Source: Candidatus Poseidoniales archaeon
GTDB lineage: Archaea; Thermoplasmatota; Poseidoniia; Poseidoniales; Poseidoniaceae
Direction: 5' to 3'
Assembly (NCBI GenBank): GCA_038146705.1
Contig: JAYQSB010000002.1
Location: 8,688 to 72,687 of the forward strand
DNA length: 64,000 nt
The position numbers and the translations under genes were made by a program. The notes under the pieces are model-generated. The model did no database searches and was not told the origin of the DNA. It worked only from the letters and a program-made list of their open reading frames with translations. Below, piece after piece: positions 13,301-61,184 of the stretch. How positions within the stretch are numbered: the first letter of the stretch is position 1; every line of letters starts with the position of its first letter.

Positions 13301-14030
13301 AATTCAGAAAACGTACGACTTATCTTCCTGTGCACCGATTGCAGTTGAATGGCCAGTCTCTGATGGAGAGTCAAGCCATGTGAAGATACTGGAAAAGTCG
13401 GATTTGGAACTTTGTGTGAATGGATTTGCTGATCGTGTCGATATATTCATCCCATCAGAAGAATTGGAAGACGCACTTATCGATGAAGGATTCATCGATG
13501 AAAAACAGTTTGATGAACCCTTCCCAATGCAATATATCGACCAACAACGTTCTGCTCAGAGATATGTCATCATTCGAGATTTCAAAACGGTGAATGGTCC
13601 TAAATCTGACAACATTGGGAACCGTCATTTCAAAGGATTAGTTCGTGAAGTACAACTTGCACTCTATGCAAGAGCATGGGAAATTACGCATCCAAACGAC
13701 AGGGTTATTGGCGTAGGCATTAGTGAAGTTGGTGAATGGACTGAACATTATGTCGAAATTGACACAACTGCTTTTCCCCACGGCATTCAAATCAATGGAA
13801 TTGGAAAGCAGACGAATATTTTGAGTCGGCTTTATCCTTCGTCAATTGATGCAGAGAATGTATCTTCTCCATTTCGTGTATGGATGAACGAACGCATTGA
13901 GACGGCCATGAGGGTCATTGAGACGGCATCGAATGGATATGTGAATCCGACACCCGGCCGCCATTGTTCATATTGTCCAATCAACACTGTTTGTACATTG
14001 TTTGACCTAGCGGGGGGTGAACTGAATTGA
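10311..14030 (+). CDS. AddB/RecC-like subunit of a helicase-nuclease complex: inactive helicase scaffold plus a C-terminal RecB-family nuclease with an Fe-S cluster.
   Basis: 1239 aa with a GTG start and no Walker A motif. C-terminal nuclease motifs: CPRKGWAKQFL (first Cys), GDMVHEVLAH, FADRVDIF, IIRDFKTV (D-x-K), QLALYARAW (QxxxY) and CSYCPINTVC (Cys3). This matches the AddB/Cas4 iron-staple nuclease architecture. Confidence 0.65.
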   Translation: MEFFLISSEPVELGRGVPNWLFDSIVSGAISNVLFIHPTTEHRNALMTRLRYEDVTTHPNHHVTYDGLIRQLASDLRLHTPFEDDVALLEKIHNLLEKRASEFAFPVLHNGAHPWTFAKTQRIIKTLRTLLQAELPWNWEANPGFEDVLSELQKFEETHQKMIPFLTEFHVNASLKTLDKRPFHLQLVDGVIVLNHPPDYSPIQTSILQRLSSWLPFHQLIAQGQIRLGHRGSSILDAHFDSINSLPLGLDKIERDKLMHDGWQTSNGISHYPSFLRILLDDKMQTIESVCQFISEYLQEHQGKIIIIDPCKEDHHNAWRHHLTMMGLPVGRSAIPIQQTPFVQQLVGLARIGYGVHAWSLNHLLRFVHTVGLPLKTDLFPELKHPQNEDWRPVLHHNVLQKCSTIHHVLGGPGALGRWRGTLSQMQPIDSRHEVITKQEIEETLWALASISRLMSPLLSSEDQYVAQIEVEGPMSETELPLPSSPSNVFAWFEEILEKIDWEEIVSDLDQANHEAQALEKFILEIRKLQLSIHTSTWSKLTPHWFFERMTYISTKIKTDASQVNSDLIKIMTPEQAFGLECDLLILTFMDLESWSMKQPVIPWLDEFTKKELGFLSNSSKIRQGRHHLRHLLNCSPFACIFDASLEEGGEPATPLAEWYAELNEEEFTNLASPFEWMMEKGSDSLSSYWGTTYDKKDNLHWIIPKPLRIHQVKGAYLIEKHGSSQRNIRQNVGLEVKYGMQQTQPIHRNNSFLPSLERALHQDRISRQPSKNTLTRGETLSWESRKYRTTISDLKEGLNLLQAHKVEGLGGEYPHLGVKGGGKTITPYIDPRPLPPAFESQPEIEHFSGTIESSLERERWSPSRLQTWIECPRKGWAKQFLNVEDAPSELEEDINAIMRGDMVHEVLAHILNGHGVVAYDGEVKEPTPLHEGPISNPIDGWMRALEFLATNVTWLELDFAISVHRCRSLIGSTPEAWRQYLEGKVTLQPQGSLGDLIQKTYDLSSCAPIAVEWPVSDGESSHVKILEKSDLELCVNGFADRVDIFIPSEELEDALIDEGFIDEKQFDEPFPMQYIDQQRSAQRYVIIRDFKTVNGPKSDNIGNRHFKGLVREVQLALYARAWEITHPNDRVIGVGISEVGEWTEHYVEIDTTAFPHGIQINGIGKQTNILSRLYPSSIDAENVSSPFRVWMNERIETAMRVIETASNGYVNPTPGRHCSYCPINTVCTLFDLAGGELN

Positions 14031-24878: not shown

Positions 24879-26864
24879 ATGGATGTTGTTTTCATTTTCG
24901 GAATTCTTCTCGTAACCTCACTCTATTTCTTATCCCAGTCACTCTCGAAGGGAATTGGAGAAATGAAATCGGTTCTTTCTCAGATTGGTCTCTTCATCCT
25001 CAGGAAAAATCCACCGGGCCTTGTTGATTTGTTTAACGACGACGACGGTAGTGGAGCAAAAACATGGATGAATTTTGGCATGCTCTGGTTCTTCTTTGCA
25101 GGCATCATGGGTTTCCTCATTGGATGGCATACATACGACCCAACCGCCCTCAACTCCTTGTCCAGCGTTGGTTGGTCCTACGATGACGGGTCTGCTCTTG
25201 TCGACTTTACAACATCAGCACTGAACACAGCATTGTTGTTGGGGCTCGTGGGTAGTGGAATGGTCGTTGTTTCTCGAAATGCAAATGGCCGTTTGGCAAG
25301 TGAAGCAAATGCTTCAATGGTTGCAGTCCTTGTATCCGTGTTGCTTGTTACCCGACTCGTCCTACCGGGCCTTCTGGGGATTTTCGATGTCGATACATCA
25401 TCTGATGGATTTACAGTTCTCCTCCTCTCTCTTGAAACCCTCGCAATTGCGGCTCTCATGATTCCAGTCCTCATCAATTTGCTTTCCACAATTGGACAAT
25501 CAAAGGGTGAAACACTTTTGACGGGCTCATGGTTCATCATTATGGCAGTCACCGTGAAAATTTTCGGCTTGTTGTTCATCTTCTTTGGCGAATTAACAGA
25601 TTCCACACAAACCGTTTGGCTCGGTGAGCGTGTTGCAAATGGCTGGGCTATTCTCGCCCTCCTTCTCGGTATGGGGTACTATGTTGTACCCAAGGTCGCT
25701 GAAACACCAATCTGGTCGCCATCACTCCGTACAGCGAGTATGGTATTGTTGTTTGTCACGCCAAGTGTGTTTTTCATGACGACATCCAACAGTGGAAATT
25801 TCTTAACGAACATTGGCGCAATTCTTCTCACGCTCTCAATGTTGCCTTTGTTTGCAGCGAGCATTAACATTATGATGACAGCAACAGGCGGATTTGACAA
25901 AGTCATGAATCATCCAGGTGCACTTGCTGTACTTCTCGCATTCTTCCTCCTTCCATTCTTTGTTGTCGGTTCCTATTTCACAGCAATGGACGTCTTTGTC
26001 GGCTCAGGTGAATTTTCAAGTCTGGCAAGTGTTGTTGATATGGGTGCTATGTTCACCATAGGTGGACTTGTACTCGTTGGATCAGTCTTTACAACATATC
26101 CAATTGCATCAGGAAAAGCACTACCATCCTCATCGACGGCACATCTTTCAGTGTACATGATTTTTGTAGGTGGTCTCGCATCGACAATTGCCTACACAAT
26201 TGGGGAGTTCTCAACAATCACAGTCAACTCAATGGCCATCGAGGACGCAGTTGCAGATGTTGGCAGTTACTACCTCACAGGGTCAGTCCTGTTCTACATT
26301 TTACCCATTGGTGCACTTTTCGCAACGCTGTTGATGATACGTACAGGTATCTCTCATTCAGCACAATCCGTTTCGACCACAGAGGCTGATATCAAATCTT
26401 ACACATTGGTGACAGGCTCGAAAACAAGTATTCGTGAATTGATTGGAAGAGGTGTTGGCATCGATACAATACTCGTCCTTGCAGAACAAGGTCACGCGGA
26501 AGGCGGTACATCGCTTATTTCAGTTGGAGCCACACTCCATGATGATGAGATCACTGAAATCCCCGATAAAGAAGTTGACCACCTTCTCGTCGACCTTGCA
26601 AATCACCTTGTTGAGCAAAAGATGTCAGTCTTTGATTTGTTTAAACAATCCGACAAAGATGCAAGTGGCTCAATCGACGAGCAAGAACTCAGTGATATTT
26701 TCACAGGCATTGGCCATCAACTCTCAATGGCCCAGACCGCTGCTTTAGTTCGTCGATTTGATATCGATGGAGATGGTTCAATCAACCTTCCAGAACTCGA
26801 TATCCAAATAGCCCTCATCAATGCATCGTATACCGTTTCGCAAGCCTCCGATGAAGAAGAATGA
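24879..26864 (+). CDS. Polytopic membrane protein (about 12-14 TM) with two C-terminal EF-hand Ca2+-binding motifs.
   Basis: Many hydrophobic helices across the N-terminal 480 aa. The C-terminus has DKDASGSIDEQEL and DIDGDGSINLPEL, both canonical 12-residue EF-hand loops (D-x-D-x-[SD]-G-x-I-x-x-x-E). Confidence 0.6.
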   Translation: MDVVFIFGILLVTSLYFLSQSLSKGIGEMKSVLSQIGLFILRKNPPGLVDLFNDDDGSGAKTWMNFGMLWFFFAGIMGFLIGWHTYDPTALNSLSSVGWSYDDGSALVDFTTSALNTALLLGLVGSGMVVVSRNANGRLASEANASMVAVLVSVLLVTRLVLPGLLGIFDVDTSSDGFTVLLLSLETLAIAALMIPVLINLLSTIGQSKGETLLTGSWFIIMAVTVKIFGLLFIFFGELTDSTQTVWLGERVANGWAILALLLGMGYYVVPKVAETPIWSPSLRTASMVLLFVTPSVFFMTTSNSGNFLTNIGAILLTLSMLPLFAASINIMMTATGGFDKVMNHPGALAVLLAFFLLPFFVVGSYFTAMDVFVGSGEFSSLASVVDMGAMFTIGGLVLVGSVFTTYPIASGKALPSSSTAHLSVYMIFVGGLASTIAYTIGEFSTITVNSMAIEDAVADVGSYYLTGSVLFYILPIGALFATLLMIRTGISHSAQSVSTTEADIKSYTLVTGSKTSIRELIGRGVGIDTILVLAEQGHAEGGTSLISVGATLHDDEITEIPDKEVDHLLVDLANHLVEQKMSVFDLFKQSDKDASGSIDEQELSDIFTGIGHQLSMAQTAALVRRFDIDGDGSINLPELDIQIALINASYTVSQASDEEE

Positions 26865-31567: not shown

Positions 31568-34500
31568 TCAAAGTAGGTCATCCAAAAATGATGTGTCAAT
31601 CGATGATGGTGCATTTTGAGTTGGTGTTTGTGCTGGTTGAATAATTTGATTTGGCTGTTGGACCGGTTGAAGCACAGGTTGTGTTGCCTGGTACACTTGT
31701 CTTCCGTACGTTCCAACTTGTTGTTCGGGCTGTGAAGGCGGCTGTTGGTCAAAAGTTTCGGAGGCACCTCTATTCCAAGTTGTATCTGTTTCAATTCCCC
31801 ATGTTGATTCTTGCAACTCCCAATCTTTTGAAATTCGGGCCCCGCCTGTACGCCTTCGTCCACGAACGAGGGCGATGAGTGTTAACAAAACTACGAGACC
31901 AAGCCCGAGTGCGAGAAGCATTTCTTGGCTTAGGATTGCATTAATCGAGAATTCTGTTCCATCTCCATTCTGCTCTCCTTCAGTCGCTGAAGCATCGACA
32001 TTGTTCAAAACGACAGGTACGACTTCCTTCTCAACGCCGAGGGCATTAAATGGTGTTACTGCGATATACCATTTTGATGAATTCACCAATGCACTGTACA
32101 CCTCACTTGTGATGATAAACGAAGTATCCCCCTTGACTTCGCCAAGGAAATCGGCTTCATCAATCGTTGAAAATCCTTCATTTTGGATGTATATTCGCAT
32201 TCCATCAACCCGTTCATCGATTGGATTTTCCCATTGAATAAGGATGTCTCTCTCATCAATCCATGACACCTTCACATCCAATGCAGGGGACAAGGGGTCA
32301 CTCGAAGAGAATCCACCATTGTCCACCGCCGAGCCTTCTGCAACGATGAGTTCTGTTCGATGAGCATTTCCAGCCGCATCGACAGCAACAACAGCAACCC
32401 AGATGTCCAGCCCTGCAATAATTTGAGTATCACCTGCAAGAAGGTCAAGACGGATTGGTAATTCAGGCGTTCTGGTCAAGATAAATAGCGGGTCGGTAGG
32501 GCCATCTCCACCTATGGTGACTGAAGAAAACGCCCATGTGGCACCATAAATTTCGTAAGATGAAATATCTGACGCATTAGAAAATTCAAAATCAACAAAG
32601 ACAGATGTACCGTCATCGTTTGGAACATCGAGAATAGAAACGGTGTCAATGCGCTGTGGCGGGTCATTATCGTTGAGGTTATCGATTGGGGTCACAGTGG
32701 CTTGAATCAAATCATCGACGTGGACATTTCCTTTGATGTCATGCACGGTGACGACAACATACAGTTTCACATCGGGTTGGATGATTTGAGGTGTTGATGC
32801 GAGGAGATCTTGCCCTCCATACAATGCTGTTGAAATCGTAAGCTCAATTGGATTTGTTCGTTCATCAATCCATTGTTTATTGAATGAAAAACATCCGCAG
32901 TTTGCAGCATTTGTTCCCCTTGATGCATATAGCCATGAAATGTCGGTGAGAGGTTTATCGGCAACCCAAATCGTGTAGGAGGCAAAATCGTCAGCCTCGG
33001 ATGGTTGCCATACAACATCGATTGCTGTACCATCGTCATCAGGGTGGTCAAATGCCATGATGTTTGTTACACGGTTAGGTATCGTTCCCGAACCTACGAT
33101 ATTTTGTAGAGGAGTAGCTGAAACCAACAAAACATCTTCTGTGTTTCCATTGAGCCATGCATCGTATGCAACCACACCAATGATGTATTGTTGTCCATCA
33201 ATGAGTGGAACGCCATCGAGGGACGAAAGAATGGTTTGATTTTCATCACATGGACTTATGATGGCGGCTTGTGAAAAATCGTTTACACTCCCGCGAGTCG
33301 TGCTGTTTTGGTCGTCAGCATTTGTGATTCCATCGTTCTGAGCCTGTTTCATGAACACAGTGTACAATGAGCAATCATCATCGAGGCTCACGTTCCATTG
33401 TACAGAAATTCTCCCACCTTCATCGTTCGGAATATCATCAGCTATTGTACCATTGATGGGAAGTGGAGCTTGGTTGTCGTTTAATTCCCCAGTTGGAACA
33501 ACCGGTCCGACGATAGTGACATCCGATGTGTTTTCTTGGCCAGCCTCATCTTCACATGTGAATCCAATCCAGTAGGGGGTTTGGGGTGTTAGCGAGATAA
33601 TCGAGGTGTTCCCTTCCAACACGTCGATAGTGTCATGAATTTTGAGTCCGATGACATCAGAAAATTGGTTTTTCGAGACATAGACATTTGTTGAAGCGAG
33701 GTCGAGGGCAGTACATCTTGCCCATTCTAGTTCAATTTCGCCATCCTCACCATTCGTATGCGGTTCAGCAGTAGCCCAATTCGGAGGTCGTGGAACTTCA
33801 TCTGTAGGGGTCGCAGGTCCAATTTGAAGAGGAATATTTCCCCATCGGCCATCGTTGTACTGGGTGACGACAATTGCAAAATACTCACGGCCATCGACTA
33901 GAGGCACGCTATCTGCTGTAGAAACCTCTGAAGAGGTGCGACTGTGAAGTGAAATTGTTTTGTCGGGCGTGCGTTGTCGTAGTTCAAGTTCAGTTGGTGC
34001 ATTTATCCACGGTCCATCATTCACAAAGATGTGGTATTGCGAGAAGTCAGGGTCATGAATTAACGACCATTCTACCATCAATGTAGAACCACCATCGTCT
34101 GGTCGGTCATAGATTGAATTGAGTTGAATAGGCGTATCTCGGCGAATGTAATCATAACTCAACCGAACAAGCAGCGTACCATTCTGCGGAGACTGCAACG
34201 TCAATGACACATGTTGTGTGTTGTTGAGCAACATGCCCGAATCGATAGCATATTGAAGGTTTGATACAAGATTTTCATCGTTGCTAAGATTGATGATTGC
34301 ATTGTATTTTAGATCGACGAGTTTCGTCCAAACCATAGCACTGTCCACAGGAGATGTGAACATGAACGGCATTGTGGAGAAGGTGGTATTGTGTGGTCCA
34401 GCAACATCTCCTGCAAGGTTGAGGAATAGCGGATTTGTCGGGTCCACAAGGGTAATTTCATCGCCAACATGAGTTTGTGAGGTGACATTTCTTGAAATTG

Positions 34501-37500
34501 CACCACCTGCTGTTGCAAACTGAAGAGGTTGAGCACGTCGAAGGATGAAATCATCCACTGCGTTGTATTGTCCATTGTTCTCAAAGCCAACGAGACCTTG
34601 GTCTGTTGTCAACCAAAAATGAGAGGAGGTTACAACGCCCTGTCGCACCTCATTAATGCCTTCAGGTGGAAGGGCAATGTTAAGAATCGAATGAGCACTT
34701 GTTCTTGATTCGAGCATAGCAATACCATTGTTTGAACTAATGCTGACAATTTGGTTTCCATTGCTCATAAGATCTCGGGCAGGCCACCAAGAGTTGAGAT
34801 TGACAAAGCCTTGACCTTCTTCGAAATCACCGCTTGAACTATTCCAGTGAATCATTTGTTGGGAATTGAGTGTTGAGATATGAATGCCCCACCAATCGCT
34901 TGAAAGTGCAAGAACGATATTTGATGGAAGTTGGTCAAATTTGTGAGTTGAATCCAATGTTGGTGGAGATGTTGAAAGGCTCAGTATACTAATTCCTGGT
35001 CGTTCATCACCTCTTCCATCATGTGATACGAGAAGATTTGTTGCTCCACTTGGGCTTGTCGACTCTGCGAACATCCAAGCAGAATTACCAGCAAGTCCCT
35101 GTGCCTTTCCAATCGTTTGGAGTTGTGAAGTGCTTTCATCAAATTCAACCACGCCGTTTGCTGTGGCGAAATATACCAATGAACCTGAACCACTACTCGA
35201 CGAGCCTCCAACAAAAATATCGTTTACAATCGAAGAGGGTAATCCATCTGCAGATGTGATCGAATCTTCCCAGTCATCATTTGAATAGTTCCAAACACCA
35301 ATACCGTTGTCGGTTGCGATGTACATGTGGGTTGAACTCGTTGCGAATCCGTTGACAATGTTTGATGGAAGACCTGCAATGAGCCTTCCTGCAGTGAACG
35401 TTTGCGTCGAGAGATTGAAATTTTGTACACCTGGGCTCGAACCCGATTCGGCTGCTAGACCAATGACCAAGTCACCACCGTATCTGGCGATACCGTCGAG
35501 GTTCTGATGTAATCCACCGCTGATTTTTTGCAACTGGCCATTCGAACTCAATTTGAATAAACCGTTGTTGATGGTTGAGAAGTACATGTCAGCATTGACC
35601 ATCTCTGCATCGTAAGCAATCGCTCGCCCGGGGAACGTCCATCCGAAATCCCATTCAAGCGAGCCATTTGCTAAGAAATGGCCCTTTAACACGCCAGTAG
35701 CTGCAAATGAATTCCCAGTTCCACCAGTTGTTGGTTTCGTTGTGACATACACATTTGTAGCATTACCTGAGATGGTCCCAAGTTGTCCACTCACGATTCC
35801 GGGCAGGTCGAGAAGCACCTGCTCACCGAGAATTGAGATGTTTGAGACACGACTGTAACCGGATGAACCCCCAGCCTGGCCCATGAGCCAAGAAGCCCCT
35901 AACCACTGGAACGAGGTAGCGGATGAACCTCCGCCGCGTACGGTAGCTTGCCCTGTTGTTGCTCCGTTAGAAGTGAAAATGGAATATCCGCCAGCAATGT
36001 CATTGCCTACACCATGGCCGACGATGAGGCGACCATTCGACCAGTCAAGACCATCGTACCAAACCAAATCAGAAGGCAAACCGTTTGCAGATGTTGTGAT
36101 TTGGTTCAACCATTGTTGTGTTGAATAACTGTATTTTGAGATGCCTTGGTTGTTGTTGTAGAATCCGACATAGAGGGTTTCTGATGAATCGCATGCAACA
36201 GAGGCCACACCAAATCCTCCAAAATCAGAACGTTGGAATGGCGAGACGGTCGTTGATTGATTGTTGAGAATATTGAATCGTGCAATAGAGCCTGTGCCTT
36301 GGTACATGGCCATGTGGAGATACCCTCCGCACATTGTTGCAGACATCGGATATCCGTTTGGAATATTGTTTGATTGACTGCTTCGATGAAGTGTGGTGAT
36401 GTTTGTGATGCCGTTGAGATGTGTGACTACGCCTTCCTGGAAGAATTCTCCACCGCCAAAACTGCCGTAAATTCCACCACCGATGATAAGGTGATTGCCA
36501 TTGGTCCACAATTCAAAGAATCGTGATCCAGCATTATTTGGTAGGCCACTTCCTTCAGTCCAGGTTGATAGCCATTGTGAATTCTGTTCATCATACCGGA
36601 GTATGCCATCCTCAGTAGCAAAGAGCGTGGCTCCTTTCCATTCAACGATGCCTCGAATCGGAAGGTCAAATTGGTCCCAACTACCTTGAAGTACATAGCT
36701 GGAGTCATAGAGTTCAAGCTTCGATTCACCCCACGCAACCCATGTATTTCCGAAACTGCTTTCGTACGCAGTGACACGGTCGACCTGACCCTCAGGAAAG
36801 ACACTTGTTCCCCATGAATTGTTTGAAGTGTTCCACAAAGCGAGTCCTCCAGAGCCTTCAGCGTTCCACCACTGGCCCGATGCTACGGAGGCGATGAGAA
36901 TGTCACCAACAAGACCAAGGCCATAGATGACACCACCATTTTCATTCACCCTTGGACCTGCATCAAGCAATGCAAGTTGATTGAAATTGACAAGGTCGAT
37001 ACGTCCAATAGAATCGGAGTTGTCGCTTCGGTAATACATCACATTGTTGTGAACAATCATCTGGTATGGTTCAGAGGTTCCGGTGTACAATGAACTTGAA
37101 CGTTCAATGTCGTAGACTTCTTGACCAGACGTGACATTGATCAACTGAAATCCATCTTCTCCTCCAACCCACAAGTGATTTGGACGAATATCAGCAGCAA
37201 GACCAGAAACATCTTCATTTCCGTTATCGAGAACGTTATCGAGCGTGTATGGTGTCAGCCACTGTTGTGTCGTTAGGTCGTAACGTAAGACCCCAAAACC
37301 GCTGATGCCGATAAAGGCAACATCGCCAATGATCTCAACAACAGCATTACCGGATTGGCCGAAATCATTCTCCCAATTTTCTGACCATGTGAATGAAGAT
37401 TTGTCGAGCAAACCAACCCCGCTCACAGTTCCACCAAAGACCACTGTTGCGTTAGTGCCCACACTGTAAACTGCCCAATTTGGCATACCATCTTGTGCGT

Positions 37501-39892
37501 TAATACAATCTTGAATTGCAAGTGTACTTAGTGTGTACTTACACAATCCTATGTTCGTACCTGCATAGACAGCGCTCCCTTCGACCATCAAATCAAAAAA
37601 TTGTGAAGGGCGAGTACTCCAACTGCTTCCTTGTCCAAAGGAGGAGGCGGTTTGTCCATTCCATTTCCTTGCTCCCTGCTGAGTTCCAATGAGGAGGTCG
37701 CCACCGTCAGATGCAAGTGCAAACACGTTAGCAGAGGGTAATATTGCAAACCGATTTCCACTATTACCTTGAGCGGTTACCAACGGCTCAATAATTTCGT
37801 TTAATGATAGGTCTTTACGGGCTATACCAAACCCAGGCAGACCGAGGTGAAGGATATCCCCGACGATAGCAACAGGAGCAAAATCAACGCCATTGACGCC
37901 AGTTGAGGACCATGGTTGCAAAAATGAGTTTGAACTTGTATTGTAGCGAAGAACACCTTCATCTTCAGAAGCGATGTAAATGACTTGATTGTGCATGACG
38001 ACATCCGTCAAAAACGAAGAATCAAGTCCATTTTGAGTGTTAAAAACATTCCAGCCAGCGTTAGTCGTGGTATGGTCGATATACGCCATAACGCCAGAAG
38101 CAACGATCACCAAGTTGGTTGAATCAACAGCACAACCTGCAAGCCTAGAACCCGTCTGTTGACTGCTTGTGTAATAATTTTGAACTTGGCCAGTGGCAGA
38201 CACTTTTGCTACATCTCCGTTTTTGAAGCAAGCAAAGATTGATTGTCCATCCGTACGTAAAAATGCGATAGCATTTTGATTTTGGTTACCTAAATTCGAG
38301 AATGGCGTAGCCCATTCTGCTGCAGAAACATCATACCGGTTGATGAGGTCTTCAGCCCCGACATAGATCATGCCATTGAGTTCAACTAAGCCCGACATGT
38401 CACCAGAACTCGGACCGCTTGCAAGAAGAATATCTGCATGGTTTCCCGTCGATTTATCATAGGCAATCAATCGTCCTGAACCATCACCAACGATGACTGA
38501 AGCATACGATGGACCAAACTCACCTCCCACTGGCCATGTTGTGATACTCTGACCTTCACCGAGGAGGCCAAATTCTGATGAAAGACCAAAATTACCTCCG
38601 CTGACAAAGACCCCACTGGTTGAGTTGTAGGTTTGCAAATTCTTCCCATTGAGAATGTAAATCGAATTTCCGCTGAGAGCGAGTCCACCGATGTAATTTG
38701 ATGTTAACCAGTTGCCGCTGTTCCAAGTTGACAACCAAAATCCTGAATTCCAGTCATATCTTCCAATCCCGCTATCATGAGAAGCCATGAACAATTGATT
38801 TCCAACAACGAGAAATTCGGTGACAAAGTCGGAGTGAAGATTGTTCGCAGTCGACCATTGTGAAACGACATTACCGCTTGAAATATCGATGGTTTGTACA
38901 CCCAAATTCGCATGTGAAACATACAATAAACCGTTTAATACAATCATGTCGAGTCCATCATTTGCTCCTGAACTTTGCTGTCCGGCTGGCGTCCAGTTCC
39001 CCTGCACTAGAGACGCAACTCCACCGGAATACGACGCCCACCATGTCTGTCCATCGTAAATGAATTTGTTGAACAAGTAATTCGTAGGGGCATTTGGGAG
39101 CCCGTTTTGTATTGAATTATCATCGAGTGAAATTCCAGAAAATGTTCCATCTGCATGAAGAATTTGAAGGATTTGAGATTGAATATCAATTTCAATGTCG
39201 AGGATGGACTCTTTGTTGAGGTCTAGCACATCTAGAATTGTTGATGAAACACCATCGAATGATAGCACGAGTATGCTTGAATCGATAGCGAGGTACATTT
39301 TATGATCGTTCGGGTCAATTTCCGAGTCAATAATTTCGACCTTGACTTCCCGTAGAGAAACAGCAGGGTCTGCAGGAGATAATGCTTCGATAATCATCGT
39401 TGTAATTTCAGCGTTCGTAGGGAGTGTCACTTGGGCTCCTGAGAAACTGTTCGGATTCAACTGTCCAGAAGCCGTTGAACTCCCAGGAGAGCCGTCGAAA
39501 ATATTCGTTTGGCCGAGCGTACCCCAACCTCGCATATCGACAATATTTGCATTGTTTTGTTGGCCAACAAAAAGATGAGGTTCATCGATGATGATGCCAT
39601 CTTCACCTCGTACTTGGATTTCAAGGTGAACATTGGAGACTTCTGCACCTGGTGCAAACGACAAGTTCCATGTCGCCGACGCTTTTGTATTCGTTGATGG
39701 GTTAGCACCAGTAGTCGATAATTGAACCCATCCTGTATCGTTGCTACCTTCTGTTGGCCATACGACATCGCCGGGGACAGAGTGTGCTTGTGCGGGGATG
39801 ATCAGGCCCATGGGAACCGTTGTACTGAGAGCCATGACTATGACCAATGCGAACGCAGAAAACGTCCGCCTTAACTCATAGCGTCGGTTCAT
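31568..39892 (-). CDS. Giant cell-surface protein (2774 aa): signal peptide, extensive beta-propeller/beta-sheet repeats, FN3-like modules, a C-terminal TM anchor and a Gln/Pro-rich cytoplasmic tail.
   Basis: Signal peptide FSAFALVIVMALSTTVPMG. Hundreds of NxS/T sequons. Repeated W/G/S/T/N-rich blades. A C-terminal hydrophobic helix LALGLGLVVLLTLIALV is followed by RGRRR and a QP-rich tail. Confidence 0.7.
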   Translation of the reverse strand: MNRRYELRRTFSAFALVIVMALSTTVPMGLIIPAQAHSVPGDVVWPTEGSNDTGWVQLSTTGANPSTNTKASATWNLSFAPGAEVSNVHLEIQVRGEDGIIIDEPHLFVGQQNNANIVDMRGWGTLGQTNIFDGSPGSSTASGQLNPNSFSGAQVTLPTNAEITTMIIEALSPADPAVSLREVKVEIIDSEIDPNDHKMYLAIDSSILVLSFDGVSSTILDVLDLNKESILDIEIDIQSQILQILHADGTFSGISLDDNSIQNGLPNAPTNYLFNKFIYDGQTWWASYSGGVASLVQGNWTPAGQQSSGANDGLDMIVLNGLLYVSHANLGVQTIDISSGNVVSQWSTANNLHSDFVTEFLVVGNQLFMASHDSGIGRYDWNSGFWLSTWNSGNWLTSNYIGGLALSGNSIYILNGKNLQTYNSTSGVFVSGGNFGLSSEFGLLGEGQSITTWPVGGEFGPSYASVIVGDGSGRLIAYDKSTGNHADILLASGPSSGDMSGLVELNGMIYVGAEDLINRYDVSAAEWATPFSNLGNQNQNAIAFLRTDGQSIFACFKNGDVAKVSATGQVQNYYTSSQQTGSRLAGCAVDSTNLVIVASGVMAYIDHTTTNAGWNVFNTQNGLDSSFLTDVVMHNQVIYIASEDEGVLRYNTSSNSFLQPWSSTGVNGVDFAPVAIVGDILHLGLPGFGIARKDLSLNEIIEPLVTAQGNSGNRFAILPSANVFALASDGGDLLIGTQQGARKWNGQTASSFGQGSSWSTRPSQFFDLMVEGSAVYAGTNIGLCKYTLSTLAIQDCINAQDGMPNWAVYSVGTNATVVFGGTVSGVGLLDKSSFTWSENWENDFGQSGNAVVEIIGDVAFIGISGFGVLRYDLTTQQWLTPYTLDNVLDNGNEDVSGLAADIRPNHLWVGGEDGFQLINVTSGQEVYDIERSSSLYTGTSEPYQMIVHNNVMYYRSDNSDSIGRIDLVNFNQLALLDAGPRVNENGGVIYGLGLVGDILIASVASGQWWNAEGSGGLALWNTSNNSWGTSVFPEGQVDRVTAYESSFGNTWVAWGESKLELYDSSYVLQGSWDQFDLPIRGIVEWKGATLFATEDGILRYDEQNSQWLSTWTEGSGLPNNAGSRFFELWTNGNHLIIGGGIYGSFGGGEFFQEGVVTHLNGITNITTLHRSSQSNNIPNGYPMSATMCGGYLHMAMYQGTGSIARFNILNNQSTTVSPFQRSDFGGFGVASVACDSSETLYVGFYNNNQGISKYSYSTQQWLNQITTSANGLPSDLVWYDGLDWSNGRLIVGHGVGNDIAGGYSIFTSNGATTGQATVRGGGSSATSFQWLGASWLMGQAGGSSGYSRVSNISILGEQVLLDLPGIVSGQLGTISGNATNVYVTTKPTTGGTGNSFAATGVLKGHFLANGSLEWDFGWTFPGRAIAYDAEMVNADMYFSTINNGLFKLSSNGQLQKISGGLHQNLDGIARYGGDLVIGLAAESGSSPGVQNFNLSTQTFTAGRLIAGLPSNIVNGFATSSTHMYIATDNGIGVWNYSNDDWEDSITSADGLPSSIVNDIFVGGSSSSGSGSLVYFATANGVVEFDESTSQLQTIGKAQGLAGNSAWMFAESTSPSGATNLLVSHDGRGDERPGISILSLSTSPPTLDSTHKFDQLPSNIVLALSSDWWGIHISTLNSQQMIHWNSSSGDFEEGQGFVNLNSWWPARDLMSNGNQIVSISSNNGIAMLESRTSAHSILNIALPPEGINEVRQGVVTSSHFWLTTDQGLVGFENNGQYNAVDDFILRRAQPLQFATAGGAISRNVTSQTHVGDEITLVDPTNPLFLNLAGDVAGPHNTTFSTMPFMFTSPVDSAMVWTKLVDLKYNAIINLSNDENLVSNLQYAIDSGMLLNNTQHVSLTLQSPQNGTLLVRLSYDYIRRDTPIQLNSIYDRPDDGGSTLMVEWSLIHDPDFSQYHIFVNDGPWINAPTELELRQRTPDKTISLHSRTSSEVSTADSVPLVDGREYFAIVVTQYNDGRWGNIPLQIGPATPTDEVPRPPNWATAEPHTNGEDGEIELEWARCTALDLASTNVYVSKNQFSDVIGLKIHDTIDVLEGNTSIISLTPQTPYWIGFTCEDEAGQENTSDVTIVGPVVPTGELNDNQAPLPINGTIADDIPNDEGGRISVQWNVSLDDDCSLYTVFMKQAQNDGITNADDQNSTTRGSVNDFSQAAIISPCDENQTILSSLDGVPLIDGQQYIIGVVAYDAWLNGNTEDVLLVSATPLQNIVGSGTIPNRVTNIMAFDHPDDDGTAIDVVWQPSEADDFASYTIWVADKPLTDISWLYASRGTNAANCGCFSFNKQWIDERTNPIELTISTALYGGQDLLASTPQIIQPDVKLYVVVTVHDIKGNVHVDDLIQATVTPIDNLNDNDPPQRIDTVSILDVPNDDGTSVFVDFEFSNASDISSYEIYGATWAFSSVTIGGDGPTDPLFILTRTPELPIRLDLLAGDTQIIAGLDIWVAVVAVDAAGNAHRTELIVAEGSAVDNGGFSSSDPLSPALDVKVSWIDERDILIQWENPIDERVDGMRIYIQNEGFSTIDEADFLGEVKGDTSFIITSEVYSALVNSSKWYIAVTPFNALGVEKEVVPVVLNNVDASATEGEQNGDGTEFSINAILSQEMLLALGLGLVVLLTLIALVRGRRRTGGARISKDWELQESTWGIETDTTWNRGASETFDQQPPSQPEQQVGTYGRQVYQATQPVLQPVQQPNQIIQPAQTPTQNAPSSIDTSFLDDLL

Positions 39893-49997: not shown

Positions 49998-50474
49998 TTA
50001 AACGACTTCAAAAATATACAAAAACCCAAGGAATGCATGAATAAAAACGAGAATCATAATCAAATCTGCGGCCCTTCCATGTTGCTTTTTGGTTAATGTG
50101 TACGACTGCCCTTCTTCTTTTATCAATGCTGCCTTCCTTCCAAATCGAATCATGTAGTAAAGCAAAAACAAACCGATAGGTCCAGTAAATCCATGCAGAT
50201 TTGTCGGAATGAGATTCACCAATATCGGTTCGTTCTTTGAATATGCATCGAAGGCTCTTGCACCAAAGGCGATGAGGACAATCGCAACACCAGATTTTAA
50301 CAGGAATTCCCCAAATTGTTGGTGATGCTCAATTTTCTCCAAACGAGTCTGGCCTTTGAATTCTAGATTTCTGCTTTTCCAAGAATATTGCCACCACATT
50401 GCAGCGATTAAAATCAAAGCAAACATGGGATGAAGAAGCAGTACAATTGTAGAGAGCACCCCCATCTGACTCAA
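49998..50474 (-). CDS. Four-TM membrane protein with conserved intramembrane His residues (possibly heme-binding, DUF420-like).
   Basis: His residues sit in hydrophobic helices (LLLHPMF, NLHGFTGPIG, HGRAADLIMILVFIHAFLG). Confidence 0.3.
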   Translation of the reverse strand: MSQMGVLSTIVLLLHPMFALILIAAMWWQYSWKSRNLEFKGQTRLEKIEHHQQFGEFLLKSGVAIVLIAFGARAFDAYSKNEPILVNLIPTNLHGFTGPIGLFLLYYMIRFGRKAALIKEEGQSYTLTKKQHGRAADLIMILVFIHAFLGFLYIFEVV

Positions 50475-50590
50475 CTTTACTACAACCCATACCTATGTTG
50501 AATTTGTGTAGGTAAACATTCAGACTCATGGATTCATAGCGGTGGATTGAAAGCACATCGTTCCCGCGTTAAAATTGCCGAGGTCATCGT

Positions 50591-53500
50591 ATGATTGAAC
50601 TTAGGATGGAGCAGTGCCTAAAATCAGTGTTGGGTGCTCCAAAACTAAAACGGCTCCGCATGGCCGTGCGTTCACCAACATGGGAACTCATTGACAAACC
50701 TCACAAAGGGATTCTATCATTTGCGATGAATGAAGAAGAAGTCCCATCCGATAATGATGATCAGCAGAATCAACCCTCTCATATGAGAACAAAAGGAAGA
50801 CGATTGAGAAACAAATCTCGAGGGCAATCAACTGTAATGTCGCCTCAGGAATACCTACCCGAATTAAACGAAATACAACAATTTGAATTATCATCCGCAT
50901 CGACACTCGCTATTCTTCTCATACGAAAACAAATGAATGACCCAGACTGGAATGATGAATTTGAATCGTTGGAGATGTTCATGCGAAATGATTGTTTGGA
51001 AAATGGAGTGCACCCCGTGTGGCATACAATTGCTGAAAAAACGAATTATCTCACACAATTTCTTGCATTTCCAAAAGTTAGGCCTAAATCTGAATCAACA
51101 ACGAAAAAATTCGATCCCAAAAAAGCAACAATCAATCCAGCGGATTCATCTCAAGTGGCACTCTTACTCTCACACGCCTTAGAAACAACAATCGACGCAA
51201 ATCTACAAGTCGCAATGAACAGATTGATTGGACAACTTCAATCTTCATCTGGTCAGTCTGTGAAAATTGAACAAATTCTGTTTTCTCTTGAAGACAGTCT
51301 TCAATACCTAAGCATCATTTTAAAATTCCATTCACAAGATGACATAACAGAATCGAATATTGAATTTTTGAACGCACAAAAAAGTGGGGTTGCAAAGAAT
51401 TTATTGAGATATTCTGAATTCCAATCGAATAATTTTTCAAACTGGGCTGAAGTTATCGAACTTCCTGGAAACAACGAACTTGAGCGTATGCTTCTTGAAA
51501 TGGTTTGGATGAACCTACCTGATGAAGCCGCAGAACTAAGCTCTCAACACATTGACAAAGGCATAGCACTCATCCAAGAATTGCAGCAATCAAAAGCACA
51601 AATTGACAAACTGAAATGGTGGAAGATGAGTGCGTTACAACGTGAAGGACAAGGGGGCATTGCTCTCGAGGTCCTTCAAGATCTAGCCATTACATCCTTC
51701 ACTGATATTGATGCATTGCTAAATTTCCTCATGATTTTCCCAGCAGAAAAAACAAGTCAATGGGTCCTCAAATTTATCGATGAGATTGATATCGACGGAT
51801 TAAGTGCTATCCTTGTATCAGATCATTACGAAGGTGAGTTACAAATCCTCATCGCCCAACGAATTTTCGATTCACATGGGTTTGAATTTGAGCAAGAGAG
51901 AAGTTATTTGTTGAAGGCATTCATTTCTGGTTTGGATTTTGAGCGACTGACAAAAATATTTCATTCTGATGCAATGTATTGCTTCTCTTATCCATATGAT
52001 GCACTTTTTTGTTATCATGCAACACCTGCATCATTATCGGTGAACAGTGAAAAGCAATTTCATGATTTGAGAATGCATGCTTTACAGAGTCTCACAGATT
52101 CTTCTCGTCCAGATTATATCTCAGATTCAGTTGAAGAACTCTTATTGCTCATGGAAGGAATTCAGTTGGATTCCGATGCCCTCATGAAGACACTGGGGAA
52201 TAAAGTTTACATTGATTTTCAACCGGTTATCAATGCACTTCAACAGGGAATTTCAGAGGTCAATATTCAACAACCTAAATTACAAGCGCTTAAACTTCGG
52301 TTGAGCGGAATTAACACATTAACGCCCTTGGAAAGCCGTCTGTTCAACGTATTATTTTCGACTATTGCCATGAATAACACACGTCAAGCATTTCACAATA
52401 GAATGGAGACACCGGAGCAAAAGAAAGATATGGCAATGATTGTCAATGAACCCTTTTTCACCCTCACAATTTTACAAACAATACAAGAACTTGTGTTAGA
52501 TTATGATCTTGGGATACCAGAATTAGTTGATTGGTATCAAAAATACAGCCCGTCTTCACCTTGGCAAACGCTCAGTAGAGCAGCGAACCATGTTCAAAAA
52601 GATGAGCAGTTGAATGCAGCCCGAGAGTACAAGAGGGTTGCAGACCAAATCCACACAGTTAGAGTAGACTCTGACGATAGAAAAAATTCTGCAGAAGAGG
52701 TCATGTATTATGTTCAGCAAGGGATTTTTGGAATCGAGCAAGAGATAGCACTTTATCGCAAAGCTTTGATTCATTATGCCCACGCAGGCCACTGGGCAGA
52801 AGCACTGGATTTACTAGAAAATAATCCTTCACTTAAATCAGCCCTCACGAAGAGATTTCAATTGTACCTTCAAGTTTCGAATCTTGCAGACAACCAACAA
52901 ACAGGGCCAGCAACTCGACTCATCGTAAACCATGTGTTGAGTTCGATTACTGAAGAAGATCAGTCCGGAGAAGGTATGCGAACAAGGGAAACATATGACG
53001 AAGAAGAATTAGAGACCTTACGCTCATACACAACAAACCATGCAGTGCATCTGCCCGATAAACCGTTCAATGGCAGGGTGATCGCTGCACACACTGAATT
53101 GTCACGAAAATTATCACGACATCGTGATGAGTTTGAACGAAGATTCCAAATGCTTGAAAAAGAATCCAAGTTTGATTTTATTGAAGTTTATGAATTAGCA
53201 AAAGAAGCTTCAAATGCAAGTCCATTAACAGGATTGAAGATTCTTGAAAGGGCTCAACATCATCGAACACTCGACACTATAGGGAGGCAAAAACTCAAAG
53301 ATGCTGAGATTACTCTTTTCAAAAATCACGAAGAAAAGATACCCCTTAAACACAGGAGTCAATTACGACAATTGAATTTGAAACCATTGGTTGTCGTTGA
53401 CACGAATATTCTCATCAATGCCCTTATTGAAGAAGTATACACACACCTTGGTATTATTGCTGGTCATCAGCGAAAAACGATGAATCAACTTGATTCTTCA

Positions 53501-54094
53501 GGAGATGTACTCCCAAATTCCGGTTTGGGAGATTTTTTCAGATTTTTGAAGAATCAATCCGAAAATGGGAAAATATTCCTACATGTTCCTGAGGTAATAC
53601 GTGAAGAATTGAGCATGTTTGGCGACCCTCGTCGGTTGGAGCGTCAGATGAATTTGAAATCAATGCTATCAAAATCAAATAACAATGAAATTACCACTGA
53701 GTTCCTCAAAGAAAAGATTGCAGAAGTCATCGATGCGTTTTCAACATGGAATGAAGCTGAATATATTGAAAAAGTTGAAGATGTTGTTACGCCAGAATTA
53801 GAAGAATTCTTTGTGCAGCATCATGAAGTGTTTGAAGAAATATCATCTGTAAAACAAAAATATGGGGCAACCACACCCAGAACAAAAATTGCTGGAAAAC
53901 AATACTATCCTGAAGAGAACGATATGCATCTGCTCCACTACGCAAAAGCGGTTTCCAATTTAGCTTCGAAAGGTATTGGTGTAGTCCTCATCGCATCGTA
54001 CGACAATGACTTCACGTTTATCTCTAGAGCCCTCGAAGAAACATTCGGCATCTCCGTTGTACGAAATCCAAGGACATTGACCGACTGGTTGTAG
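50591..54094 (+). CDS. Large (1167 aa) helical protein with a C-terminal PIN-like nuclease domain carrying a long insert.
   Basis: PIN acidic residues: KPLVVVDTNILINAL (D1), PEVIREEL (E), EENDMHLLHYA (D) and VVLIASYDNDFTF (D4). The N-terminal 900 aa is alpha-helical repeat-like with no motif. Confidence 0.5.
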   Translation: MIELRMEQCLKSVLGAPKLKRLRMAVRSPTWELIDKPHKGILSFAMNEEEVPSDNDDQQNQPSHMRTKGRRLRNKSRGQSTVMSPQEYLPELNEIQQFELSSASTLAILLIRKQMNDPDWNDEFESLEMFMRNDCLENGVHPVWHTIAEKTNYLTQFLAFPKVRPKSESTTKKFDPKKATINPADSSQVALLLSHALETTIDANLQVAMNRLIGQLQSSSGQSVKIEQILFSLEDSLQYLSIILKFHSQDDITESNIEFLNAQKSGVAKNLLRYSEFQSNNFSNWAEVIELPGNNELERMLLEMVWMNLPDEAAELSSQHIDKGIALIQELQQSKAQIDKLKWWKMSALQREGQGGIALEVLQDLAITSFTDIDALLNFLMIFPAEKTSQWVLKFIDEIDIDGLSAILVSDHYEGELQILIAQRIFDSHGFEFEQERSYLLKAFISGLDFERLTKIFHSDAMYCFSYPYDALFCYHATPASLSVNSEKQFHDLRMHALQSLTDSSRPDYISDSVEELLLLMEGIQLDSDALMKTLGNKVYIDFQPVINALQQGISEVNIQQPKLQALKLRLSGINTLTPLESRLFNVLFSTIAMNNTRQAFHNRMETPEQKKDMAMIVNEPFFTLTILQTIQELVLDYDLGIPELVDWYQKYSPSSPWQTLSRAANHVQKDEQLNAAREYKRVADQIHTVRVDSDDRKNSAEEVMYYVQQGIFGIEQEIALYRKALIHYAHAGHWAEALDLLENNPSLKSALTKRFQLYLQVSNLADNQQTGPATRLIVNHVLSSITEEDQSGEGMRTRETYDEEELETLRSYTTNHAVHLPDKPFNGRVIAAHTELSRKLSRHRDEFERRFQMLEKESKFDFIEVYELAKEASNASPLTGLKILERAQHHRTLDTIGRQKLKDAEITLFKNHEEKIPLKHRSQLRQLNLKPLVVVDTNILINALIEEVYTHLGIIAGHQRKTMNQLDSSGDVLPNSGLGDFFRFLKNQSENGKIFLHVPEVIREELSMFGDPRRLERQMNLKSMLSKSNNNEITTEFLKEKIAEVIDAFSTWNEAEYIEKVEDVVTPELEEFFVQHHEVFEEISSVKQKYGATTPRTKIAGKQYYPEENDMHLLHYAKAVSNLASKGIGVVLIASYDNDFTFISRALEETFGISVVRNPRTLTDWL

Positions 54095-54095
54095 A

Positions 54096-54482
54096 TTAGA
54101 CAAATTGCGGAACATTTGAACCTGATTTTTGTGGCGAGAGGAAATTTTGATTCACTCTGTCAATCAGTTCCTTTCCAAGAATCATGGCACAAGATAATTC
54201 TGTTCGATCTGTGATTGATAATTCTACATCGTATGTTGTTCTCCCGATTCTAATTTTTGCTTCGACAAGTTGCCTTGTTTGTTTACCCATTGCGTTGCGA
54301 ACTTGTATTTCACCAACTTTCTTCAGGCCTAGAGCATTTGCTAATTTCTTGTCAATTGAACAACGGGAAGCACCGGTGTCAATTTTTGCTTTCAAACGAA
54401 TCCACCACTTTCGTTTTCCTCCTCCTTTGAGGCTAACCCACTTGGAGTCAAACGATTTACCCATGGCTCTCACCAATATCAC
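54096..54482 (-). CDS. Retropepsin-like aspartic protease (PF05618 / 'ATP-dependent Zn protease'-like clan AA).
   Basis: [13 protein letters not shown] carries the D-T/S-G-A active-site motif in a 128-aa protein. It overlaps the icd stop by 4 nt. Confidence 0.45.
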
Positions 54483-55789
54483 ATGTATTGAATTATTGCA
54501 TTTCCAAATTCACTGCAAGATAGTAACGTAGCGTGCTCCATCAATCGTTCAAAGTCGTATGTCACTGTGCCTGCTGAAATTGCCCCTTCCATTCCTTTGA
54601 TAATCAAATCAGCGGCTTCAGTCCAACCCATATGTCTCAACATCATCTCAGCACTCAAGATAACTGAGCCGGGGTTGACCTTGTCTTGCCCGGTGTATTT
54701 TGGTGCAGTTCCATGCGTTGCTTCAAAGATTGCGTGTCCGCTGTTATAGTTGATATTCGCTCCAGGTGCAATACCAATGCCCCCAACCTGAGCAGCGAGT
54801 GCATCGCTGAGGTAATCTCCGTTGAGGTTGAGTGTGGCGATGACATCATATTCTTTGGGCCGGAGTAAAACTTGTTGCAACATAGCATCTGCAATGACAT
54901 CTTTGATGATGATGCCTGCACCGTCTTTTCCTTCAGGAATAATGTGCCATGGACCTCCTTCGTAGGGAACAGCTCCAAAGAAATCTCGTGCGACTTTATA
55001 CGCCCATTCAGCAAATGAACCCTCTGTGAATTTCATGATGTTACCTTTGTGTACAATAGTAACGCTCTTTCGTTGATTTTCTACTGCGTATTCGATTGCA
55101 CTATGAACGAGTCGCTCGGTTCCCAAGTAACTAACAGGCTTCAAACCAATACCTACACGTACAGATTCTTCTCGTGGTGAACCACCAGTTGAAGATAAGG
55201 TTTCAATCCAGTCATCTGTCTTTTCTTTTGTACCAAATCGAATTTTATCGAAGCGCTCTGGGAACTGCTTGGCTAGTAATTCTAGGAATGTTTTGTTCTC
55301 ATCAGTCCCTGCCTCGAATTCGATGCCTGCGTAAATATCTTCGGTGTTTTCCCTAAAGATGACCATGTCAATGTTTTGTGGTTCTCGTACTGGAGCTGGA
55401 ACACCATTGTACCATCGAACTGGGCGAACACAAGCAAACAGATCGAGTTTTTGCCGCAATGCGACATTTAACGAACGAATACCTCCGCCAACAGGTGTTG
55501 TCAATGGACCTTTAATGGAAACAAAACCTTCTGCCATTGCTTTTAGTGTTGCATCTGGTAGCCATTCTCCTGTTTGATTGAATGCTTTTTCACCAGCGAG
55601 AACCTCATTCCAATGAATCTTTTTTGAACCCCCATATGCTTTTTCCACTGCAGAATCAACGACCTTGAGCATGACAGGAGATATGTCAATACCTATACCA
55701 TCGCCTTCAATGTAGTGGACGATAGGCTCGTTTGGTACGTGAAGTGTTCCGTTTTCGAAGGTAATAGGCGTTCCAGTCATGACTCTCAT
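54479..55789 (-). CDS. icd: NADP-dependent isocitrate dehydrogenase.
   Basis: [26 protein letters not shown] is nearly identical to the bacterial ICDH signature. Also [15 protein letters not shown] and [14 protein letters not shown]. Confidence 0.9.
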
Positions 55790-61009: not shown

Positions 61010-61106
61010 GGTACTGCTACATCTTCGATATAGATGAATCCAATGGATGAACGATGACAATTTCACAATCGGTGGTTTCAAATTAGAGCACAAATGGGGG
61101 AGGGTT

Positions 61107-61184
61107 AGCGAGGTGGGGTAGTCTGGATATCCCGTCGGGCTCATAACCCGGAGATCGATGGTTCAAATCCATCCCTCGCTACCA
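61107..61184 (+). tRNA. tRNA-Met (CAT), initiator type, with genomically encoded CCA.
   Basis: Cloverleaf by hand: acceptor AGCGAGG/CCTCGCT (A1:U72), D-loop with GG, anticodon stem TCGGG/CCCGG with three consecutive G:C, loop CU-CAU-AA, T-arm GATGG-TTCAAAT-CCATC, discriminator A, then CCA. Confidence 0.85.

Follow-up and report, generated by a model that had tools for sequence, protein, structure and literature searches.

What does a very large archaeal protein do when it is annotated merely as hypothetical, and is it a nuclease? The question is raised by a single open reading frame (ORF) of 1167 codons at positions 50591-54094, forward strand, in a 64,000-nt stretch of a Candidatus Poseidoniales archaeon genome (contig JAYQSB010000002.1, positions 8,688 to 72,687; this whole stretch is called the window below). 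Poseidoniales are among the most abundant archaea of the surface ocean, none has been cultured, and their biology is read almost wholly from genomes. A first reading of the DNA letters, referred to here as the original prediction, saw in the ORF a C-terminal PIN nuclease domain behind a long helical region of no recognisable family. The ORF is a genuine gene. The answer to which we incline, on balance, is that it encodes a housekeeping protein, specific to one order, vertically inherited and independently transcribed, in which a divergent PIN-like metallonuclease that probably cuts RNA is joined to a scaffold that selects its substrate or partner.

A probable PIN-like domain with an intact active site

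Is the C-terminal domain a PIN nuclease? The PIN-like active site is defined by four features, and activity needs a minimum of four acidic residues; the VapC-like group has as the fourth of these a Glu within the helix that comes after strand S2, where FEN-like enzymes have an Asp on S2 instead (Matelska et al. 2017, PMC5499597). The four motifs quoted in the original prediction are all present in the last 240 residues of the protein. Their acidic positions, D937, E1006 (the second Glu of “REE”), D1111 and D1138, are invariant down to 22% identity across three alignments, which comprise 17, 30 and 27 homologs. The full set of invariant residues comprises D937, T938, N939, E1006, R1097, P1107, E1108, D1111, G1130, A1135, D1138, D1140, F1141 and G1153, six of which are acidic. 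Conservation along the protein peaks in the PIN core: 28% of columns in residues 924-955 and 18% in residues 1095-1167 are at least 90% conserved, versus 5% in the scaffold.

The acidic residues also fall where a PIN fold would place them. AlphaFold2 models of the whole protein (mean predicted local distance difference test score, pLDDT, 79.6) and of the domain alone (pLDDT 81, predicted template modelling score 0.81) agree in the order of their elements, which in the domain model is b-a-a-b-a-a-(insert)-b-a-b-a-a-b-a. Strand S1 (931-936) is followed by two helices; S2 (996-998) by helices 1001-1011 and 1013-1020 and then by a helical insert; S3 (1098-1105), within a hairpin, by helix 1109-1122; S4 (1129-1135) by two short helices; and S5 (1154-1157) by the last helix. 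Five predicted strands alternating with helices agree with the alpha/beta/alpha arrangement of PIN-like domains, as read from the order of the elements and not from the order of the strands in the sheet. In these models D937 directly follows S1, E1006 lies in helix 1001-1011 after S2, E1108 and D1111 stand at the start of helix 1109-1122, and D1138 and D1140 come directly after S4. E1006 is the Glu expected of the VapC-like group, and no helix-three-turn-helix (H3TH) or helix-two-turn-helix (H2TH) element follows the PIN core in the models. Together, these two features point to the RNase-rich VapC-like group rather than to the FEN-like DNA nucleases.

Why, then, is the domain so hard to find by sequence? 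The intact protein matched no Pfam, NCBIfam or PADLOC family at E ≤ 1 except for a chance match to ACT_7, and there was no sequence match in the PDB and none in PHROGs. Further chance matches from these and from the whole-protein and domain profile searches, to antibody light chains (via “WYQ”) and to a lectin neck repeat, were discounted. The original prediction had described a domain split by one long insert. It is indeed interrupted, but twice: by a loop at residues 956-980 that is confined to the window's own subclade and has no column at least 90% conserved, and by a helical insert of ~75 residues (1021-1094) that is present in all members. The clade-specific loop is also where a terminator-like 9-bp GC-containing hairpin with a T-run lies inside the coding sequence (window 53510-53531, forward strand).

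After both interruptions had been excised from 25 members, the top six Pfam families were all PIN-clan models: PIN (10 of 25 cores), PIN_12 (8 of 25, best E 2.5e-4), PIN_5 (5 of 25, best E 0.0062), PIN_3 (4 of 25), PIN_4 (3 of 25) and NYN (3 of 25). Those matches that begin at the N-terminus start at profile position 1-3 and are aligned to S1. Every displayed score was below the gathering score, and none of the 25 cores gave a significant match; for PIN_5, the displayed scores were 12-16 bits against a cut-off of 27. The NCBIfam model TIGR03875 (“RNA ligase partner”), which we take to be the PIN_5/HARP family, was matched by 6 of 25 members, again below threshold (best E 7e-4). The C-terminal motif VLVA[ST]xDxDFT resembles the NYN/LabA signature, which fits both the subthreshold NYN matches on the C-terminal half and the label “LabA/DUF88” given to some family fragments in IMG. 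With these NYN/LabA-type signals, the assignment of the domain to a subgroup of the PIN-like superfamily is provisional. A comparison by hhalign with a VapC alignment seeded with the Shigella VapC (98% identical to P0260, PF01850) was uninformative, the profile being too shallow.

Structure searches with the domain model lead in the same direction. Foldseek gave no match to the PDB at E ≤ 1e-3; VapC-1 (6nkl_B) ranked third there, with a template modelling (TM) score of 0.50 normalised to the target, and Utp23 came further down. Among the viral structures of BFVD, the best match was a phage “PIN like domain” protein (E 2e-3, Foldseek probability 1.00, TM 0.41 over 260 columns) and the second a Medusavirus PIN-domain protein (Foldseek probability 0.66). 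PIN-like proteins of the FEN, 5'-3' exonuclease and XRN types recur among the lower BFVD matches. With acidic residues at the expected structural positions, six PIN-clan models in register once the inserts are removed, and PIN-like proteins as the best fold matches, the PIN assignment holds up well: the C-terminal domain is very probably a PIN-like metallonuclease with an intact active site, and it forms a new sequence family. Neither loss or misplacement of the acidic residues nor a match of the whole protein to a known housekeeping family was found.

A narrow family in one archaeal order

How widely is this protein distributed? A word-indexed search of 5.8 billion proteins returned 22 clusters only, of 1065-1167 residues and 95% to 30% identity, one of which was named as coming from a Candidatus Poseidoniales metagenome-assembled genome (MAG). 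When 1.84 billion cluster representatives were searched exhaustively with a profile, 217 matches came back, ~30 of them full length (1090-1170 residues) and the rest fragments; there was no other architecture and no generic PIN protein among these 217. When the insert-deleted PIN profile was run against the 5.8 billion proteins at E ≤ 10, it likewise found fragments of the family and no PIN proteins from outside it. A scan of one genome per prokaryotic species located relatives at 308 loci, of which 80 were retained and read for their labels and for intactness. All 80 come from marine archaeal MAGs; the label is mostly Poseidoniales, Poseidoniaceae or Poseidonia, and otherwise a broader one (Euryarchaeota, Methanobacteriota or Thermoplasmatota). 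The gene is intact across residues ~1-1167 at these loci. The most divergent clusters (22-28% identity) bear the same types of label, with one fragment named Thalassarchaeaceae, and a relative in an uncultured Poseidoniales MAG (locus L004) is 91% identical to the window protein.

The nuclease therefore belongs to a narrow family, always full length, restricted to one archaeal order and encoded as one copy at one syntenic position. It is apparently present in all Poseidoniales (Marine Group II) lineages. We found no description of the family in the libraries and papers that could be searched. Some loci look different at first sight. Two short proteins on long contigs (L086, L087) that might have been stand-alone “PIN-only” relatives or products of domain fission turn out to be frameshifted versions of the gene at the same locus, their tails out of frame, and a third short relative (L088) comes from an error-rich long-read contig. 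MAG UBA128 has full-length copies on two contigs (L065 and L068), each at ~30% identity to the window protein, which reflects either a mixed-strain bin or a rare duplication.

The position of the gene is as constant as its length. It is monocistronic, without a same-strand operon partner in the window. Upstream and divergent lies an ORF for a 158-residue hydrophobic membrane protein (window 49998-50474, reverse strand) with no significant Pfam match, one homolog of which has a weak match to DUF4079. Downstream and convergent are a retropepsin-like ORF (54096-54482; Asp_protease_2, E 1.8e-8) and icd (54479-55789), just as the original prediction had it in describing a gene encoded alone. At related loci, a small divergent ORF occurs upstream on the opposite strand in 76 of 83 (median gap 140 bp), icd occurs downstream in 78 of 83, and the retropepsin-like ORF was found at just 22 of 83. 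The wider block runs DUF2203, cobalamin adenosyltransferase, NUDIX, nuclease gene, icd, OsmC, FtsZ, RadA; it is retained around homologs of 30-32% identity, and its upstream half even at 23-24% identity. A gene so fixed in place looks like a vertically inherited core gene and unlike part of a mobile or defence island. The locus of the most divergent homolog (L085) differs in two respects: the small divergent ORF was not found there, and a bacteriorhodopsin-family (proteorhodopsin-like) gene stands between the nuclease gene and icd (L085 12047-12916).

A helical scaffold without sequence repeats

Roughly 920 residues precede the PIN domain, and AlphaFold2 predicts them to be all helical except for a beta-hairpin at residues 783-802. 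The original prediction had called this region helical and repeat-like. Its helical architecture is borne out by the models; its repeat-like character is not, since comparison of the profile with itself revealed no internal sequence repeats (probability below 1%), as tandem TPR or HEAT repeats would give. There was no Pfam repeat family in the scaffold, with TPR_6 appearing in 1 of 17 members at E 0.21. The earlier statement that the region matches no recognisable family agrees with our Pfam, NCBIfam and PDB sequence searches, none of which found one. With the full model, Foldseek returned generic HEAT/TPR solenoids from the PDB, none at E ≤ 1e-3, including karyopherins, IFT-A, Ski3, Ctr9 and subunits of APC.

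Conservation is distributed unevenly along this region. In the basic segment at the N-terminus, short helices (residues 1-48) precede a disordered stretch (49-85, pLDDT below 50) with the patch RTKGRRLRNKSRG, acidic at first and then Arg-rich, of which R73 is conserved in at least 90% of sequences. In the solenoid-like part, ~50 residues are invariant among sequences of 30% identity, for example in GVHPVW (139-144), WYQ (648-650), LYRKALIH (721-728) and RFQLYL (755-760); this argues for a conserved partner or substrate and not a fast-evolving target. The hairpin and the linker that follows it are the second most conserved region, with 11% of columns at least 90% conserved versus 5% in the solenoid, and with E804, E806, Y813, P822, F826, G828, R829 and LERAQ (885-889) invariant.

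Probable promoter and leader

How is the gene expressed? The element CGGTGGATTGAAAG ends 26 nt before a Shine-Dalgarno-like GAGGT. It belongs to a motif class, CGGTG[G/C]NTT[G/C]AA[A/G] (CCGGTGGCTCTAAAG or CCGGTTAATTGAATAG), that lies ~50 nt 5' of the start codon in 76 of 86 sequences (upstream sequence sufficed for display in 79 of them), at ~30% protein identity. In its exact form the motif is present a single time in the 64-kb window and, in 23 of 24 matching loci, once per locus, at this place before the nuclease gene. The same motif, as the box CGGTG[G/C]NTT[G/C]AAA at window 61068-61083, ends exactly 23 nt 5' of mature tRNA-Met (61107-61184), and the spacing is identical at L001 (17613), L003 (18183) and L086 (14122), making four orthologous loci of one tRNA family. 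The simplest reading of the upstream motif is that it is a near-consensus core promoter, with a transcription factor B recognition element (BRE) and a TATA box. An RNA hairpin or a gene-specific operator was considered and rejected: the flanking “stems” are inconsistent between lineages, and the motif also stands at a fixed distance from tRNA-Met.

If the motif is a core promoter, transcription would start near 50577 and give a 14-nt leader carrying the Shine-Dalgarno-like sequence. The promoter position and this predicted leader support ATG 50591 as the start codon. M6 (50606) is an alternative that matches the annotated start in some homologs; 50591 is favoured because its spacing from the Shine-Dalgarno-like sequence fits. 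We infer that the nuclease gene is well expressed. At tRNA-Met, transcription may begin at or next to the mature 5' end, yielding a nearly leaderless tRNA as in archaea that are free of RNase P.

A different element is seen upstream of some homologs. An inverted repeat, CACCCC-NNN-GGGGTG, lies within 25 nt of the start codon, directly 5' of it, at L036, L043, L046, L048, L049, L051, L052, L057, L062-L064, L066 and L077, with loops that vary (GGA, GTA, GAA, TAA); the window's own clade does not have it. It would pair the Shine-Dalgarno-like GGGGTGA with an anti-Shine-Dalgarno-like sequence and could be a hairpin for translational control.

Table 1. Features of the nuclease gene and its product (window positions; aa, residues of the protein)
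Feature	Position	Strand	Basis or remarks
Core promoter-like element CGGTGGATTGAAAG (BRE/TATA-like)	50540..50553	+	Motif conserved upstream of homologs
Shine-Dalgarno-like GAGGT	50580..50584	+	6 nt before ATG; invariant in alignment of the window with L004-L008
Coding sequence	50591..54094	+	1167 aa plus stop; 134 kDa; isoelectric point (pI) 5.35; full-length homologs exist
Basic N-terminal segment (aa 1-85, pI ~10)	50591..50845	+	Short helices, then disordered acidic-then-Arg-rich patch RTKGRRLRNKSRG
Alpha-helical solenoid-like scaffold (aa 86-780)	50846..52930	+	All helices in AlphaFold2; block pLDDT mostly 75-95
Conserved beta-hairpin (aa 783-802) and helical linker (to aa 923)	52931..53359	+	DSSP on the model; joins scaffold to PIN domain
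PIN-like metallonuclease domain (aa 924-1167), predicted	53360..54091	+	Fold model, subthreshold profile matches, top BFVD match
Codons D937-T938-N939, end of strand S1	53399..53407	+	Unchanged in 30 sequences, identity as low as 22%
Clade-specific disordered loop (aa 956-980) in PIN domain	53456..53530	+	Window's subclade only; pLDDT <50
Codon E1006, helix after strand S2 (VapC-type catalytic Glu position)	53606..53608	+	Invariant in domain alignment
Family-wide helical insert (aa 1021-1094), between fourth helix and S3	53651..53872	+	Conserved W1053, F1073, K1088; followed by R1097
Codons E1108 to D1111 (PEENDM), N-terminus of helix after S3	53912..53923	+	P1107, E1108, D1111 invariant
Codons D1138-N-D1140 (DxDF), right after strand S4	54002..54010	+	D1138, D1140, F1141 invariant

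What might the nuclease do?

The gene product is a 134-kDa, order-wide, single-copy and apparently strongly promoted protein, and it very likely performs a central function. The reality of the gene, the distribution of its family, the synteny, the promoter-like motif, the conserved residues and the PIN-like fold signals are observations; from them we infer catalytic activity, RNA as the substrate and a substrate-selecting role for the scaffold. In the mechanism that we favour, an active site formed by the Asp after S1, the Glu in the helix after S2, the Glu and Asp at the start of helix H4 and the DxD after S4 would coordinate Mg2+ or Mn2+ and cut phosphodiester bonds, those of RNA most probably. 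The ~840-residue helical scaffold would, with the hairpin and linker, the PIN-domain insert and the Arg-rich patch, present a conserved macromolecular substrate or partner to the active site, in the way that helical domains guide the PIN or NYN nucleases of eukaryotic PRORP or SMG6. Structured RNA, the ribosome or another ribonucleoprotein (RNP) are among the candidates for this substrate or partner. Two things favour RNA: the active site is laid out as in the VapC-like group, whose members are mostly RNases, and the H3TH seen in DNA-flap nucleases is missing.

A more specific proposal, which we advance tentatively and would not yet bet on, is that the protein is a Poseidoniales-specific core endonuclease of RNA processing or surveillance, with a giant non-repetitive scaffold that delivers a conserved cellular RNA or RNP to it, and hence an independent archaeal invention of the PRORP/SMG6 design. 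The nuclease aRNase J and its helicase partner have been reported absent from Thermoplasmatales (PMC7144898), so RNA decay in that part of the archaeal tree may rely on other enzymes. If the proposal is true, such an endonuclease might stand in for RNases that this branch of Thermoplasmatota lacks.

Could the protein act on DNA instead, as a structure-specific nuclease of replication, repair or recombination whose scaffold binds DNA or repair partners? Some archaeal PIN proteins do act on DNA, PIN-like proteins of the FEN, 5'-3' exonuclease and XRN types appear among the lower BFVD matches, and the conserved block has RadA and FtsZ no more than ~5 kb away. Yet the catalytic Glu is in the helix after S2 in place of a FEN-type Asp on S2, the PIN core is not followed by an H3TH or H2TH, the best fold and Pfam matches are to PIN, PIN_12 and PIN_5 and not to 5'-3' exonuclease families, and unrelated genes on other strands separate the nuclease gene from RadA and FtsZ; we consider a DNA nuclease unlikely. 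The original prediction had named RNA-processing factors and defence or toxin modules as the settings in which large PIN fusions occur. The second of these would make the protein a solo toxin or an anti-virus effector, its helical domain sensing infection and unleashing the nuclease. PIN domains are common toxins (VapC), defence systems include sensor-nuclease fusions with large helical domains, and a PIN-like protein encoded by a phage is the best match by fold. This reading is nonetheless improbable. PADLOC gave nothing at E ≤ 1, and throughout the order the gene is found as a single copy, at a single syntenic position, between metabolic and cell-division genes. It has no antitoxin-like partner, the scaffold keeps ~50 residues invariant where a sensor of viral proteins would be expected to vary, and the near-consensus promoter is of a conserved type common to tRNA-Met. 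A housekeeping role of the RNA-processing type is favoured over defence or toxicity because of vertical inheritance across the order at a fixed locus, the lack of an antitoxin partner and of a PADLOC match, and the conserved strong promoter.

Two further explanations keep the fold and change its role. A protein-only enzyme for tRNA 5' ends, that is, an RNase P-like convergent analogue of PRORP or HARP, would account for the union of a helical scaffold with a PIN-like domain, for a helical insert placed like the HARP spike-helix, and for the matches to TIGR03875 and PIN_5. All of those matches are below threshold, there are no PPR repeats and no zinc-binding module, no HARP structure was among the 50 Foldseek matches listed although such structures are in the PDB, and at tRNA-Met the constant 23 nt between the box and the mature 5' end hint that an enzyme would have little 5' leader, or none, to remove. 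To our knowledge, RNA-based RNase P is also nearly universal in archaea. We give this explanation the least credence of all. Scarcely more plausible is that the PIN-like module is catalytically inert and serves for binding or scaffolding only. Inactive PIN domains do exist, for example in SMG5. DIS3L has been noted as another (PMC5499597). Against inertness, the six acidic residues together with T938 and N939 are invariant at 22-30% overall identity and lie in the most conserved segments, and at least the four acidic residues that PIN activity needs are present. The housekeeping nuclease, probably cutting RNA, remains the reading that we prefer. Knowing the substrate would uncover a step of archaeal RNA metabolism peculiar to this lineage, and the PIN domain alone (residues 924-1167) should be expressible, which makes it a concrete biochemical target.

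Other genes in the window

The window contains other large genes. A 2774-residue ORF at 31568-39892 (reverse strand) has no Pfam match at E ≤ 1e-5 and encodes another giant uncharacterised protein. Two large overlapping ORFs on the forward strand, 10311-14030 (1239 residues, with a C-terminal PD-(D/E)XK nuclease) and 14027-18931 (1634 residues, with a UvrD helicase and PD-(D/E)XK), look like an AddAB-type helicase-nuclease pair in an archaeon. A 661-residue ORF at 24879-26864 (forward strand) has EF-hand calcium-binding motifs at its C-terminus and fits the Poseidoniales-specific calcium-binding families that have been noted (PMC9258230).

Comparison with known systems

How does this protein relate to nucleases that are already known? 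The superfamily of its catalytic domain is well known; the nuclease family, the domain architecture and the order-wide conservation are undescribed in the libraries and papers covered here. With the PIN VapC-like group (PF01850, PF16289, PIN_3, PIN_4, PIN_5) it has in common the alternating beta/alpha core, as predicted, the Asp of a “DTN” after S1, the Glu in the helix after S2, the Asp/Glu at the start of H4 and the Asp after S4. It differs from that group in that no model reaches its gathering score, in the 75-residue helical insert between the fourth helix and S3, in an extra DxDF reminiscent of NYN/LabA, in the fusion to a 920-residue helical scaffold and in its restriction to one order. 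VapC toxins themselves have the same D-E-D-D catalytic pattern, and VapC-1 (6nkl_B) is a weak best fold match in the PDB. VapC proteins, however, are ~130 residues long, paired with an antitoxin and variable in copy number and location, whereas this protein has 1167 residues and is unpaired, single-copy and syntenic across the order; unlike the small stand-alone PIN protein and adjacent antitoxin of a VapBC operon, its gene has neighbours that are divergent or convergent.

HARP is a minimal protein-only RNase P with structures in the PDB, and its spike-helix domain serves in tRNA binding and oligomerisation (PMC8266387). The likeness here is by analogy: a PIN-like nuclease whose domain is interrupted by a helical insertion, and an acidic pair after the insert (E1108/D1111 versus D138/D142 in Aq880). 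TIGR03875 is also the closest curated NCBIfam model. HARPs are ~200 residues long and form dodecamers without a scaffold, whereas this protein is far longer, its PIN_5 and TIGR03875 matches are far below cut-off, and its insert is longer, with 3-4 helices.

PRORP and SMG6/EST1 bear a different kind of resemblance. No PPR or zinc-module match was found in any of 17 members and no EST1 domain was detected, and the scaffold is 3-4 times larger than theirs and without sequence repeats; there is no detectable sequence relationship, and the comparison is one of analogy. What they have in common is design: in PRORP (PPR repeats and NYN), in SMG6/EST1 (a 14-3-3/TPR-like domain and PIN) and, as predicted, in this protein, an N-terminal helical recognition domain is joined to a C-terminal PIN-like endonuclease. 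With the Poseidoniales protein, the PIN-like nucleases gain a new family and a new domain architecture.

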